NCBI RefSeq assembly: GCF_965197445.1
Contig: NZ_CBDANE010000003.1
Location: 43,604-107,603, forward strand
DNA length: 64,000 nucleotides
Direction: 5' to 3'
Source of the DNA: Candidatus Palauibacter sp.
GTDB lineage: Bacteria; Gemmatimonadota; Gemmatimonadetes; Palauibacterales; Palauibacteraceae
Numbering within the stretch: the first letter of the stretch is position 1; every line of letters starts with the position of its first letter. Of the stretch, positions 6,901 through 11,012 are shown one piece after another. The notes beneath the pieces are model-generated. The model was given only the letters and a program-made list of their open reading frames with translations, searched no databases and was not told where the DNA came from. Both the position numbers and the translations under genes were made by a program.

Positions 6901-7079
6901 TCGCCATGGAAGGAGAAATCGGAACTCTCACCGGCGGCGCGCTCGCCGACATCCTGATCGTTGAAGGCAACCCGCTGCAGAACATCGAGGACCTCCGCCG
7001 CGCCCGCATCGTGATCAAGGACGGAGAGGTCTTCCGCCTCGAGGAACTGCTGACGCCGCCGAGGGTTCTCGTGCCCTGA
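3987..7079 (+). CDS. secreted PD40/TolB-like beta-propeller fused to a C-terminal amidohydrolase domain
   Basis: Signal peptide LAALLLLPLAAPTAAHAQD after Met 3987/3996. Many PD40-type repeats (P.WSPDG..IAF.S.R.G..DIW). Amidohydrolase HxH motif in LPGLVDMHSHMG, and a C-terminal G.LADILIVEGNPL motif. Paralogous to the genes at 46169 and 49564. Confidence 0.85.
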   Translation: MTPMSHVSVSRGCRSFSGLTPLAALLLLPLAAPTAAHAQDRDVRVTVSEGTNMAAAVSPDGSRMVLDLQGTLWVMDAGGGEARAITDMYYDARQPQWAPDGSRIVFQSFRDGRWHIWSIRPDGSDPVQHTFGPYDEREPAYAPDGASIAFSSDRSGNYDIWTLDLSDGPTDGRVRRVTNAPSHEFTPQWSPDGDALAYASDRNGGSIVVRRSNGSGQVVAETPGAVSPAWSPDGRHIAYAAVGRGQTGLYVAALEAGADAAPRHLSGDGADVFPFRPHWVSGDEIVYTSDGVIRTTSVDGSGSSVIPFEATFAFTRRDYERTPRSFEAGGPEPAQGIVAPAVSPDGRHIAFTALGDLWLLDIESDTESDTGAGNATPRQLTDDPFVDVLPSWSRDGSKLAYASDRAGSLDIWIRDMDTGMEQRATTSPGGEIAPVFSPDGDRIVFASVMGLASAVHVVDLASGNVRTIRDDLFAPSRPSFSPDGRTIAMSVLSQYSSRFREGRNEILLQPLDAGETRRVTAAEHRNMGVRVLDGPVWSPDGRRMAYASEGVLWLVEVDADGAPSGPPLRLNNHHTDAISWTGDSRSIVYQSTRGLRRYHLDDGRSEEIPVRIEWRRPAREGSVVVHAARAWDGVSDDVTENVDLIVEGNRISSVVPHSDANHEAGAANGGEVVDAGDHTVLPGLVDMHSHMGYGMGEALGRTFLAYGVTTIRDPTSDPYEIAERRESIDSGRRIGPREFATGRTMDGSRIYYSGAGSLGPNGNLELELDRAEHLRYSLIKTYVRLPDLIQRRIIDFAHSIGIPVSSHEIYPAVAYGADHVEHISGTSRRGYSPKVTAMYRTYDDVIQLLTASGMTITPTMALMGGWWKSVGEDSSWTTEPRFQALFPEGMAEAMAARAAARGRASGIDDMLADAGRTVTRVVRGGGRVVAGTDSPIIPFGAALVAEVENYVWGGLTEVEALRTATSVAAEALAMEGEIGTLTGGALADILIVEGNPLQNIEDLRRARIVIKDGEVFRLEELLTPPRVLVP
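6945..7079 (+). repeat. left copy of a 135-bp imperfect direct repeat (3' end of the amidohydrolase gene)
   Basis: Hand alignment with 10878-11012 gives 126/135 identical positions and no indels. Differences are mostly at third codon positions. Confidence 0.85.
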
Positions 7080-7226
7080 GCCTGCGCGCGTGCTCCGTTG
7101 AGACCGGATTGAGACCGGCCCGTGATATTGGTGCCAGACGTAATCGGCCGAAGCCGTGCGCGGAGCCGCGTCAGGTCGCAGGTTTCTTCCCTTACGTAAC
7201 CGCAGTCCAGGAATAGCCGAAGCCAA

Positions 7227-9638
7227 ATGAGCATCTACGAAACCCTCGGCCGAATCGACGCCGAGCTGGCCCTTGGGCACGGCGAGGAGCCGCAACGAGC
7301 CCTCACCGACCTCATCCGGAATATGAGCCGACCGGTGTTGGAAGAATGGCGCGTCGATCTCCAGGCACGGATCGATAGATTCCAGCGGAAGCGTCACCTC
7401 GAACTCCAGCAGCTCCTTGACGAGAGAACGGGCGTTCAGCCCGCCAACTACGCTGAGCGCACCGATGCCATGGTGAGAGAACGGCCCGCCGTGGCGGAAG
7501 ACCTCTATTCCGAAGTTGACGCTGCGGATAGCGACTTCAACGACGCACTGAGAACGCTCGGCGAGAAACACATCTTTCAGTGGGCGACCTCATACACCCA
7601 ATCTCTAAGCCATCACTTCAACTGCTACCTTCCACTACTTCAGTCGGAGTTGGCCGGTGAAGCCGCTCATTCCATCCAGCGGCAACTGGAGGAACACACG
7701 CGAGCGATCTTCACCCAGGGGTACAAGTACGGCCAGGAACAGGGCCTAACCCAAGAGATCTTGACGCAAAAGTCGATCGGGGGACTGGCCAGCCTGCTGG
7801 ACCTGCCGCTCGAGTACTACTTGCAGCGTGCGAACTACAGCCACGCTCGCGAGGAAACCGTGTCGCTTCGATCCCTACTGTCGGCCGGCAGCAGGGGTAT
7901 TCTGCGAGGGTACACTTCCCTCCGCCTCGGAGACATGGACGGTGCAACCCTCCTAGGGAGATTCCCCAACCGCTGGGCGTACCAACTCGCCTTTCTTTCC
8001 GCCGACGCCATCGAAGACATCGTCACTCAGCTGCCCGATGGTTCCTTGAAGGCCGGTCTCGAGACTGCGGCGTTGCCGCTCGCCGATTGTCTCGATTCCC
8101 TCATGTCTCGACCGCGGGAAACATATTTCCCGCTCCCGCTCTTCGGTCAGTTCTCCTGGGAGCACCGACGCTTGGACATCGGCGTGCGTTCACCCTCTGC
8201 GTGGGGATCCGACCGGCTGATCTACGCGCGTGCTCACCTTGCTGAAGCTTTTGTCTCGGAACGCGATCTGGACGAAGCCGCCGCTCGCCGCCTTGCCCTC
8301 GTTCTGGCGCCCCTAAAGCCGGATGTTGCCCACCGCGTCCGAAGCAGTGACCAGTTCGGAAGGATTGTGATTGAAGTCGGTGATGCGGATCGATCCGAGG
8401 TGGCTGAGCGCGCCACGGAGTTGCTTGCCAGACGTATCTACAAGCTGCGCAGTAAGATCGAGGGCGCGAGATCGATCACCTACAACGTTGCACGCGATTT
8501 TCCACTCCATATACCGGGGAAGTCGCCATTCTACCACGTTCGGCGCACAAGCGTCCGTGACGTGCTGGCTCGATTCGACCGCAAGAACGGCGTTCGGCTC
8601 TGGTGCAGCGTACGCCGCAGCGGCAAGACGACGGCCTGCTTCGACCTCGACGCCACGCCGGGAGGATCGGTGATTGTTTCGCAGACGTGCGGAACCGAGC
8701 AGACAACCAATGGACGGGTCTTCTACGATGGGGTCCGTAGGGCGATCGAATCTAGAACGCAGCTGAGAGCGACTTTCGTCAACTCGGTCGTCCGCGATTG
8801 CGCGCCGCTCTCCGTAGATCCGGCGAATCGTACGGTGCTGGTCATCGACGAATACGAGACTCTTTTCGGCCATCTTGGCTCCGCCGCGGAATCCGAACCC
8901 GCGATCCGCTATACGGTGGCCCAGCCGCTCCTAAACCAGATGGTCGAGTTCGCACGCGACAACCTGCTGGTGTTACTGGGTCAGCAGCCGGGCGCGCATT
9001 TCATCCTGATGGACCAGAATCAACTCGCGCCCTACGTGAAGCAGGATCCGTTCCCCTTGTTCGAACACCACTTGAAGACCGGAGAGTTCTCCCAACTCGT
9101 GGATAAGGTGCTGAGGGATCAGATTAGCGTCGATACAGGCTTTGTCGACGCTCTCCACACGGAGACGGCCGGCCATCCCTTCTTGACCGTCAACGTCCTC
9201 TGTGGGTTGGTGGATTGGCTGATCGAGCAGAAGCGTCCGGCGAGGGGGATCACCCTCGACGATGGAGACTTCGCGCAATTCCGGGCTGAAAAACTCGGAC
9301 TTGAACAGGTGAGCCTGGGCCGCGACTACGACTTCTTCCGTGAGACGGCGAAGGCGGCGATGGCCGAGACCAGCTACCGTCACAACCCTTGGCTGTACAC
9401 TGCTTACTGGCTCGTGCGACAAATCGCCCAGGCTGATTCGGAGAGATTCGCCATTCCGCGCGACGACTTGCCCGATGTGATGAAGAAGATTCCCGCTCCC
9501 GGCGTACTGCCGGAGATGAGCGAGATGTTGCGTACCGCGACACAGGCTAATTTCCTGTCGTATACGGACACAGCCGTCTTTGTGAAGGTGCGGACTCTGG
9601 GCCGACTCGCCGCATCGGTTCGCCCGGCATTGGCGTAG
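7227..9638 (+). CDS. uncharacterised P-loop NTPase (STAND / ORC-Cdc6 / Arch_ATPase-like core) with a long unknown N-terminal region
   Basis: Walker A is VRRSGKTT (aa 462-469, nt 8610-8633). Walker B is VLVIDEYE (aa 537-544, nt 8835-8858). A post-ATPase motif HTETAGHPFLT (aa 644-654) resembles the GxP helix of STAND/archaeal ATPases. The first ~450 aa are helical with no motif I know. GC is lower than the flanks. Confidence 0.7.
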   Translation: MSIYETLGRIDAELALGHGEEPQRALTDLIRNMSRPVLEEWRVDLQARIDRFQRKRHLELQQLLDERTGVQPANYAERTDAMVRERPAVAEDLYSEVDAADSDFNDALRTLGEKHIFQWATSYTQSLSHHFNCYLPLLQSELAGEAAHSIQRQLEEHTRAIFTQGYKYGQEQGLTQEILTQKSIGGLASLLDLPLEYYLQRANYSHAREETVSLRSLLSAGSRGILRGYTSLRLGDMDGATLLGRFPNRWAYQLAFLSADAIEDIVTQLPDGSLKAGLETAALPLADCLDSLMSRPRETYFPLPLFGQFSWEHRRLDIGVRSPSAWGSDRLIYARAHLAEAFVSERDLDEAAARRLALVLAPLKPDVAHRVRSSDQFGRIVIEVGDADRSEVAERATELLARRIYKLRSKIEGARSITYNVARDFPLHIPGKSPFYHVRRTSVRDVLARFDRKNGVRLWCSVRRSGKTTACFDLDATPGGSVIVSQTCGTEQTTNGRVFYDGVRRAIESRTQLRATFVNSVVRDCAPLSVDPANRTVLVIDEYETLFGHLGSAAESEPAIRYTVAQPLLNQMVEFARDNLLVLLGQQPGAHFILMDQNQLAPYVKQDPFPLFEHHLKTGEFSQLVDKVLRDQISVDTGFVDALHTETAGHPFLTVNVLCGLVDWLIEQKRPARGITLDDGDFAQFRAEKLGLEQVSLGRDYDFFRETAKAAMAETSYRHNPWLYTAYWLVRQIAQADSERFAIPRDDLPDVMKKIPAPGVLPEMSEMLRTATQANFLSYTDTAVFVKVRTLGRLAASVRPALA

Positions 9639-9642
9639 GGGG

Positions 9643-10686: not shown

Positions 10687-10842
10687 TCAGGGCTCGGCGG
10701 CTGTGAACAACAGCGCGATCGCGGGCAGCCCCCAGACCACGCGGTCGCCGCGCTTCTGGAGCCCGCGCCTGTTGAGAGTCGCCCCGATCGGGGCGGTAAG
10801 GGCGTAGACGGCGAAGGACATCTGGAACATTTCCGACAATGC
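10687..10842 (-). pseudogene. 3' fragment of a paralog of the TM2-domain membrane protein gene (13132..14124)
   Basis: Translates to ALSEMFQMSFAVYALTAPIGATLNRRGLQKRGDRVVWGLPAIALLFTAAEP*. The C-terminus of the 330-aa protein is ALDMFQTFFATYAFAAPIGAILNKHMLLQRSDRVIWVLSAVAVVFMAIGVF*. DNA similarity to 13132-13290 is visible by eye. Confidence 0.7.
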
Positions 10843-10852
10843 CCCCCCCCCC
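10842..10852. repeat. C11 homopolymer at the junction of two gene fragments
   Basis: Counted directly: g + 11 c + gg at 10841-10854. Confidence 0.9.
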
Positions 10853-10853
10853 G

Positions 10854-11012
10854 GTTGAAGCCGCCTCCGGAGGCTTGGCCGACATCCTCATCGTCGAAGG
10901 CAACCCGCTGGAGAACATCGAGGACCTCCGACGTGCACGCATCGTGATCAAGGACGGCGAGGTCTTCCGCCTCGAGGACCTGCTGACGCCGCCGAGGGTT
11001 CTCGTGCCGTGA
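10854..11012 (+). pseudogene. displaced 3' fragment of a PD40-amidohydrolase gene (contains the right copy of the 135-bp repeat, 10878-11012)
   Basis: Reads VEAASGGLADILIVEGNPLENIEDLRRARIVIKDGEVFRLEDLLTPPRVLVP*. The intact gene ends ...LTGGALADILIVEGNPLQNIEDLRRARIVIKDGEVFRLEELLTPPRVLVP*. No upstream gene body is present. Confidence 0.8.

Follow-up and report, generated by a model that had tools for sequence, protein, structure and literature searches.

Genes and repeats at the locus

We analyzed a stretch of 64,000 nt (hereafter, the window) from the genome of Candidatus Palauibacter sp. (Gemmatimonadota; contig NZ_CBDANE010000003.1, positions 43,604-107,603, assembly GCF_965197445.1), in which the 3' end of a core gene occurs twice, once on either side of a pair of low-GC genes. 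The organism is uncultured and marine or sponge-associated, and its relatives are represented mostly by metagenome-assembled genomes (MAGs), several of them with sponge-host names. The core gene, which we call amido (3987-7079, plus strand), encodes a PD40 beta-propeller and an amidohydrolase (Pfam PD40 at 2e-72, Amidohydro_1, and Amidohydro_3); it is intact, its start at 3987 or 3996 being uncertain, and has orthologues in 24 Palauibacter and related genomes. The gene pair, referred to here as the cassette, consists of g1 (7227-9638, plus strand), encoding an 803-aa protein with a P-loop ATPase domain, and g2 (9643-10677, plus strand), which encodes a 344-aa protein and starts 4 nt past the g1 stop codon. 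The same gene order with both copies of the gene end recurs in L040, a 23.8-kb contig from a different sample that matches the window at 98.8% identity over 13 kb and has private differences of its own.

The two copies, A (6945-7085) and B (10878-11018), align without gaps over 141 nt with 130 identities (blastn, E 9e-54). The first-pass annotation of this DNA had counted a 135-bp repeat without indels, and the software alignment reproduces it, with 126 identities over the 135 coding nt; eight of the nine coding differences fall at third codon positions (binomial P 0.001), and the two resulting residue differences are Q/E and E/D, also as reported there. Copy A (plus strand) is the working 3' end of amido, comprising its last 44 codons, the stop codon, and 6 nt, and runs continuously with the sequence of the related loci L038 and L001 on either side. 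Copy B is a displaced amido end with no gene body upstream. Its homology to other amido orthologues begins 14 nt to the left of its likeness to copy A, giving a feature at 10864-11018 (plus strand) with ~150 nt of the gene's end, stop codon included, and ~6 nt more. Of the sites that 18 functional orthologues keep invariant, 1 of 83 has changed in copy B and 2 of 85 in copy A; the four private changes of copy B are all synonymous, and the differences between the copies carry a signature of purifying selection. Because these differences lie mostly at third positions and so few invariant sites have changed, copy B looks like a formerly functional gene end, one that either worked until recently or was renewed by recombination. 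Recent gene conversion between the copies was considered and rejected, as the nine differences are evenly spread and the longest identical tract is at most 29 nt. Copies A and B share a TPPRVLVP tail with L038 and L001.

The first-pass annotation had placed exactly two genes between the copies. Two co-oriented, coupled genes are indeed present, and with them lies a minus-strand fragment of a TM2-domain gene (10687-10868), a decayed 3' part running from about codon 268 to the stop, which falls 9 nt from the g2 stop codon. The fragment matches TM2 residues 274-326 at 54% identity (tblastn), has changed at 18 of 91 sites invariant in 18 functional orthologues, and differs from the intact TM2 gene of the window at 13, 15, and 9 first, second, and third codon positions. 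This pair of TM2 sequences has diverged further than the amido pair (37/147 versus 9/135, P 2e-5). An origin of the fragment in a distant lineage was rejected, since all TM2 genes of Palauibacter lie equally far from it and outgroups are further away. TM2 homology extends to ~10868 and amido homology begins at 10864, so the two fragments meet back to back in an illegitimate joint, J1 (10864-10870), with the GC-rich overlap CCGCC. Inside the TM2 fragment a poly-C run (10842-10852) measures 11 nt in the window but 15 nt in L040. In the window this run, together with an ATG at 10839, opens a 57-aa open reading frame (10839-11012) that spans copy B; in L040 the frame is not maintained.

To the right of copy B stand an outer-membrane beta-barrel gene, OMPw (11011-11490, minus strand; Pfam OMP_b-brl_2, positions 10-153 of 175), and a gene for a six-bladed beta-propeller (11487-12692, minus strand; Pfam DUF5128). 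OMPw has lost its last ~50 codons: its alignment with the intact 211-aa protein of L001 stops at DFGIAAGGG, and at a second junction, J2 (11011-11018), it is fused straight to the copy B stop codon, its frame continuing into copy B on the opposite strand. The propeller gene, whose stop codon overlaps the OMPw start codon, appears intact (401 aa; 58% identity over the full length to its L012 homologue). It is followed by the remnant of a second outer-membrane beta-barrel gene (12708-13037, minus strand), which matches residues 35-120 and 182-211 of the L001 protein (tblastn) and is 97.6% identical to L001 in nucleotides over 12780-13028. The interval is bounded by the intact, convergent TM2-domain core gene (13132-14124, minus strand; Pfam TM2, 7e-16), which is syntenic in related loci and adjoins a methylmalonyl-CoA mutase-like gene (14125-15744). 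The gene fragments give rise to further repeats within the locus, at 10704-10834/13152-13282 (79%) and 11140-11340/12780-12977 (78%). A scan for promoters and terminators between 6900 and 11600 returned nothing beyond the expectation from shuffled sequence.

The lower GC content that had been noticed between the copies from a few hand-counted lines holds for the whole cassette: the GC content of 7227-10677 is 0.608, against a window mean of 0.685 (standard deviation 0.022), which makes it essentially the lowest 3.45-kb stretch of the window. Codon composition, proposed at the same time as a check, agrees, with a GC content at third codon positions (GC3) of 0.72-0.73 in g1-g2 and 0.88-0.91 in the flanking core genes. 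Low GC3 reaches past copy B into OMPw (0.66) and the propeller gene (0.74). In six other hosts, the g1-g2 pair lies 4-14 GC points below its neighbor genes.

Alleles of the interval in related genomes

We compared the interval between amido and the TM2 gene in 26 related genomes or contigs of Candidatus Palauibacter and its relatives and found at least eight forms. The interval can be nearly empty (L006, with 43 nt between the two stop codons) or can hold one outer-membrane-protein gene, two such genes, a propeller gene with an outer-membrane-protein gene, g1-g2 alone (L039 and L014), or g1-g2 with an outer-membrane-protein gene (L166, L167, L049, and L038/L001); the remaining forms are the composite of the window and a small composite in L019. 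The empty sites that the first-pass annotation had asked for are common, as most of the 26 lack the cassette, including the closest relatives of the window, L024 and L022. Trees of three flanking segments mix carriers with non-carriers: L024 and L022 are free of the cassette yet cluster with the window, L040, L038, and L001, and the carrier L039 has two close relatives, L019 and L020, that lack the cassette. Because its composition is atypical and even the closest relatives have empty sites, the cassette is accessory.

The cassette occurs at the same left junction with a single amido end in seven other loci (L038, L001, L039, L014, L049, L166, and L167), and only the window and L040 combine it with two; the second-best matches examined, those in L001, L014, L038, and L039, were at noise level. 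In every mapped carrier locus g1 lies directly 3' of the amido end, and the six Palauibacter-type loci inspected share the same leader between the amido stop codon and g1. The right neighbor varies: besides the TM2 gene or an outer-membrane-protein gene, it can be a fragment of a propeller gene or of a TM2 gene. One of the six loci with the shared leader, L046, is ectopic. There, g1-g2 (L046:5765-9451; 73% and 64% aa identity) lies between TonB-receptor/SusD genes and HTH-peptidase M78 and AAA_14/DUF4143 genes, preceded by a 27-codon amido 3' fragment and an intergenic leader as in L039. The retention of this amido end by an ectopic cassette shows that the cassette and the gene end move as one piece.

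L019 repeats the topology of the window without the cassette. It corresponds to L020 with an insert of 222 nt, in which a 43-nt spacer separates an amido tail from ~40 nt of the 3' end of TM2; after the insert follow a second amido end, an outer-membrane-protein gene, and the full TM2 gene; the joint lies at the microhomology GCGCT. Its two amido copies (L019:11025-11396) are identical over the first ~105 nt and strongly different over the last 35 nt. Because the first unit has a different amido tail and an L039-like TM2 fragment, the two units of L019 are not copies of one allele.

In L001, the closest species-representative genome, two insertion sequences have inactivated the cassette: g1 is interrupted by an IS4-like element (DDE_Tnp_1; 12503-14308) and g2 by an IS630-like one (DDE_3; 16226-17455). 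L049 (488-5824) is another rearranged version of the locus, in which g2 is degraded and amido, truncated at its 5' end (487 aa, no PD40), stands after a fragment of an integrase gene and a gene for a PLD-SNF2 helicase. When metagenomes were scanned with a conserved 20-mer, 56 contigs matched; only one of them was Palauibacter-like (L121, without the cassette), and no further stacked alleles turned up.

Traces of recombination

Both amido and g2 have a mosaic structure. The window's amido gene resembles L024 over 4300-6700 and L038 from ~6800 onward, a switch that would fit the arrival of the 3' end together with the cassette. In g2, identity to L038 drops from ~85% to 55-61% past ~9950 and stays low to the end of the gene; no such drop is seen between L039 and L014. 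We read the positions near 6800 in amido and 9950 in g2 as recombination breakpoints, and the C-terminal part of g2 comes in three or more deeply diverged allelic versions that recombination has exchanged.

The window and L040 differ at 164 positions, mainly in clustered patches. Ninety-nine of these lie at 4000-5000, in the PD40 part of amido, and 24 at 15500-16000, and both clusters are probably imported recombination tracts. Four further differences group at 6938-6962, at the left edge of copy A.

The right flank of the window and L040, covering the TM2 and mutase genes (13132-15744), sits on a long branch relative to L038 (~86% nt identity; TM2, 79% aa identity), unlike the left flank, which is 91-97% identical. 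The right flank may thus have a recombination history different from that of the left.

Origin of the duplicated gene end

The explanation that we favor, with modest confidence, is that two hotspot alleles came to be stacked through a pair of crossovers between strains, one of them homologous and the other illegitimate. The amido(+)-TM2(-) interval of Candidatus Palauibacter would be a recombination hotspot with many alternative versions, and the window would hold two of these in tandem, each running from amido -150 to TM2 +185. Unit 1 (6931-10868) would comprise the last 150 nt of amido, g1-g2, and the last ~185 nt of TM2, and unit 2 (10864-~13320) the last 150 nt of amido, the truncated OMPw, the propeller gene, the outer-membrane remnant, and the first part of the intact TM2 gene; the amido end, present once per unit, would be what forms the 141-nt repeat. 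DNA from a strain with one allele would have recombined with a chromosome bearing another, through a homologous crossover in a core gene, most likely in amido near 6800, and an illegitimate crossover at a short GC-rich overlap that fused 3' fragments of TM2 and amido to each other. In this process, known as homology-facilitated illegitimate recombination or 3'-end displacement, the cassette-linked end would complete amido and the other end would be pushed downstream. Host recombination functions would suffice for these steps, which is why an integrase would not be expected. The mechanism and the direction of transfer are what we infer; directly observed are the repeat and the joint, the gene fragments, a patchy distribution, and the signatures of selection. 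Stacking may have had a single origin, shared with L019 and followed by remodelling, or two origins.

Several observations favor this explanation. The back-to-back fusion of the TM2 fragment and the amido end gives the geometry of two tandem units, the interval has at least eight alleles with carriers beside non-carriers in three gene trees, and L019 shows the same topology without the cassette. The presence of the structure in L040, the single amido end at seven other carrier loci, the signs that copy B was a working gene end until recently, the mosaic breakpoints in amido and g2, the clustered patches that distinguish L040, and the amido end kept by the ectopic cassette of L046 count in its favor as well. 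As is characteristic of 3'-end displacement, the junction is constant on the anchor side and variable on the other, and downstream of the module that came in there is an orphan 3' end that was once functional.

Other observations weigh against it. The amido-side breakpoints of the window (-150) and L019 (-142) are only ~8 nt apart, and that of the ectopic L046 is at ~-100. The joints overlap by CCGCC in J1 and GCGCT in L019, and many equal or longer microhomologies exist at other places; because the 3' parts of amido and TM2 share many 9-11-mers away from the joint, microhomology alone does not explain the breakpoint at -150. Short, stable repeats may survive preferentially, which could account for the clustering. 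The two fragments at J1 also differ in apparent age (18/91 versus 1/83 changes at invariant sites, P 4e-5), so that a single event needs a further step, either a TM2 fragment that was already old in the donor or a copy B that recombination has renewed. Because the joint falls within the homologous anchor, it creates a duplication. Copy B is L038-like rather than L024-like, yet the amido gene upstream is L024-like. Stacking leaves unexplained why the tail type of copy B is otherwise seen only with cassette carriers and why OMPw is joined, at codon ~160, directly at the copy B stop codon. Uptake of foreign DNA by this uncultured host, by competence or another route, is a presumption, and the mosaic tracts are indirect signs that the host recombines with such DNA.

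Much of the same structure would result from an in-situ tandem duplication, from amido -150 to TM2 +185, of an ancestor with the order amido-g1-g2-OMP-propeller-OMP-TM2. Reciprocal loss would have followed, unit 1 losing its outer-membrane and propeller genes and unit 2 its cassette, which would have created J2 past the stop codon. A duplication predicts exactly the back-to-back joint that is present, would put the clade-specific TPPRVLVP tail into both copies, and starts from a gene order akin to that of L038, L166, and L167, where the cassette is followed by outer-membrane-protein genes; J2, lying at the stop codon, could be the deletion of a redundant second cassette. However, a simple duplication is disfavored because it predicts similar decay of both fragments, and here the paired fragments have diverged unequally, copy B being undecayed and the TM2 fragment heavily decayed. 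The purifying-selection signature in the differences between copies A and B speaks against it as well, and in place of the same content at comparable divergence the two units have entirely different cargos. It also needs two deletions flush with gene ends and a replaced g2 C-terminal part, and the units of L019 do not derive from one allele. We regard this history as rather improbable. A shade less probable still is a Campbell-type event, in which a non-replicating circle carrying the amido 3' end, g1-g2, and the TM2 3' end, closed beforehand by an illegitimate joint, entered by a single crossover within the 150-nt amido homology. Such an event would yield the exact structure observed, with J1 as the circle-closing joint, and L046 demonstrates a cassette moving with an amido end; the sequence cannot separate this model from allele stacking. 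Against it, the circle would have to arise in one strain and integrate in a different one, the corresponding circle in L019 would measure just 222 nt, and the age mismatch at J1 applies here too.

The first-pass annotation had read the repeat as the attL and attR sites of a site-specific integrative element inserted into the amido 3' end, its integrase lost or acting in trans, a reading that we now consider very improbable. Low-GC cargo stands between direct repeats of a gene end, relatives have empty sites, the displaced amido ends break at the clustered points -150, -142, and ~-100, and distant homologues of the cassette are sometimes found near integrases, all of which accord with it. Its statement that no integrase or transposase is present stands: tblastn with seven integrase or transposase queries found no homologue in the 64-kb window, family searches found no recombinase domain in g1 or g2, and none of these enzymes was called within 8 kb of the syntenic L038 locus. 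This absence itself counts against an integrative element, as do the lack of an attR at the seven other carrier loci, the repeat without any cargo in L019, and breakpoints that cluster without being identical. Copy B does not behave as the end of an element, since it abuts a TM2 gene fragment in an illegitimate back-to-back joint, and the right junction of the cassette changes between alleles, falling at TM2, an outer-membrane-protein gene, or a propeller fragment. Of the earlier picture, in which the element supplies a new gene end and displaces the old one, the displacement survives, copy A being continuous with the cassette and copy B being the displaced end; the integrase-type insertion does not. 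The repeat would accordingly be a scar of recombination and not the attachment site of the cassette. A chimeric or collapsed metagenome assembly that joined two strain variants might be suspected, given that the source is a MAG and that a short-read contig, L041, ends at the poly-C run just before copy B. The independent contig L040, with its private differences, shows the same order and both copies, so we reject an assembly artefact and hold this explanation to be scarcely credible.

The g1-g2 proteins and their distribution

The predicted g1 protein has a helical N-terminal half, a small beta domain, a P-loop ATPase domain, and a winged-helix-like end. Its Walker A (RRSGKTT) and Walker B (VLVIDEYE) motifs are invariant in 29 sequences, and the members of its family are ~800 aa long, have a mean column identity of 61%, and are all annotated as hypothetical. 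Neither protein matched Pfam, NCBIfam, PADLOC, or PHROGs above threshold, and the defence models of PADLOC-DB v2 gave 0 families for g1 and 0 for g2 at E up to 1; AAA_22 matched the g1 family below threshold, in 9 of 29 members. AlphaFold2 modelled g1 with a predicted local distance difference test score (pLDDT) of 77.9, low in the P-loop region, and g2 with one of 92.4. Fold searches against PDB and viral models gave weak AAA+ matches only: the best PDB folds for g1 were RuvB, archaeal AAA+, ORC, and RFC proteins (E 5e-3 or weaker, TM-score ~0.25), and the matches of g2 to AAA+ module folds were weak, none of them significant. These matches weakly suggest that the ATPase domain of g1 (residues ~440-700) is AAA+-like. 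A profile search against PDB returned coiled-coil noise only (PspA/Vipp1, E 0.011), hhalign found no relation between g2 and g1, and a search of the phage collection gave no match.

Across 185,579 species-representative genomes, the g1 family occupies 59 loci, in 51 of which a g2 homologue lies adjacent downstream. The loci are distributed over Gemmatimonadota, Acidobacteriota, Gamma- and Alphaproteobacteria, Binatia, Rhodothermales, a Eubacteriales MAG (Bacillota), and Actinomycetota (Streptomyces, Micromonospora, Dactylosporangium, and Nocardia). The pair is thus a conserved, widespread, and as yet unnamed operon that occurs across several bacterial phyla. Its neighbors elsewhere include integrases, transposases, GmrSD, AbiEii-like ATPases, a type ISP restriction enzyme, and helicase-nuclease fusions, along with many ordinary housekeeping genes. 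A related pair, both members annotated as hypothetical (801 aa, WP_159215432.1; 334 aa, WP_159215431.1), is encoded by the Klebsiella pneumoniae plasmid pKPN0421-1 (L169; NZ_CP115715.1:45912-49321), a conjugative IncFII/IncR plasmid on which the pair stands between IS6 and IS110 transposases. A second Klebsiella conjugative plasmid, NZ_CP095122.1, has a matching g1-like gene (the gene table was inspected for pKPN0421-1 alone).

From this gene context, a role of g1-g2 in conflict or defence is a reasonable guess. A more specific proposal, which we advance tentatively and think unlikely as a whole, is that g1-g2 is an undescribed two-gene anti-phage or anti-plasmid system that moves by means of the core-gene 3' end as a portable homology anchor. 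It would combine an ORC/RFC-like ATPase, a partner with deeply diverged C-terminal alleles, and spread across phyla without a recombinase of its own. If that were so, the repeat of the window and the amido end in L046 would be footprints of such movement.

Comparison with known systems

Orphan 3' arrays at type VI secretion system (T6SS), Rhs, and contact-dependent inhibition (CDI) loci have been attributed to homology-facilitated illegitimate recombination (PMC5361080; PMC3150448). As in those arrays, a conserved upstream gene part serves as the homologous anchor, the module brings its own 3' end, the old 3' end and the downstream genes become orphans, no integrase takes part, and close relatives hold different modules. 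The present locus is unlike them in that the anchor is a conserved periplasmic-type amidohydrolase with a functionally invariable 3' end and not a polymorphic toxin, that just two units are stacked, and that a second, convergent core gene, whose 3' end is duplicated too, bounds the stack, so that both ends of the units are visible.

Integrase-borne islands in the 3' ends of tRNA or protein genes likewise have low-GC accessory DNA flanked by a direct repeat of the gene end, leave the gene intact, and alternate with empty sites. Here, however, no recombinase was found, the repeat is missing in other carriers and free of cargo in L019, and the right boundary is a fragment of the neighboring core gene. 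A duplicated gene end around low-GC DNA is thus insufficient to call an integrative element. In the pangenomes of E. coli and Pseudomonas, variable and defence hotspots are flanked by core genes and exchanged through recombination in the flanks. Those hotspots share with the amido-TM2 interval a fixed position, many cargos including none, a patchy distribution among close relatives, and atypical composition; unlike them, the window keeps two alleles side by side with a visible illegitimate joint, where replacement would be usual.

Compared with AAA+ proteins of the ORC/Cdc6, RuvB, RFC, and archaeal types, g1 shares the Walker A and B motifs and weak fold similarity over ~300 residues (E 5e-3 to 5e-2). 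It is unlike them in matching no family model at threshold, in having ~430 N-terminal residues without a known fold, and in its constant pairing with a 330-345-aa partner outside known families.

The locus, which encloses an uncharacterized and widespread ATPase operon, represents a process of a known type in new surroundings. If allele stacking is correct, it would be a clean natural case of accessory genes entering and piling up between core genes by host recombination alone, with both breakpoints still readable, in an uncultured lineage without genetics. Cultivable carriers of the ATPase operon exist, such as Dactylosporangium vinaceum NRRL B-16297, Nocardia amamiensis, Streptomyces spp., and K. 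pneumoniae with pKPN0421-1, so its function is testable.

Other repeats in the window

Two further sets of direct repeats lie elsewhere in the window. Several collinear repeats with 70-75% identity and a spacing of 3.4-3.8 kb link 46280-49013 with 49696-52825, which suggests tandem paralogous genes or operons. A 90-nt direct repeat (42539-42628 and 43804-43893; 73% identity, 1265 nt apart) is probably paralogous coding sequence.

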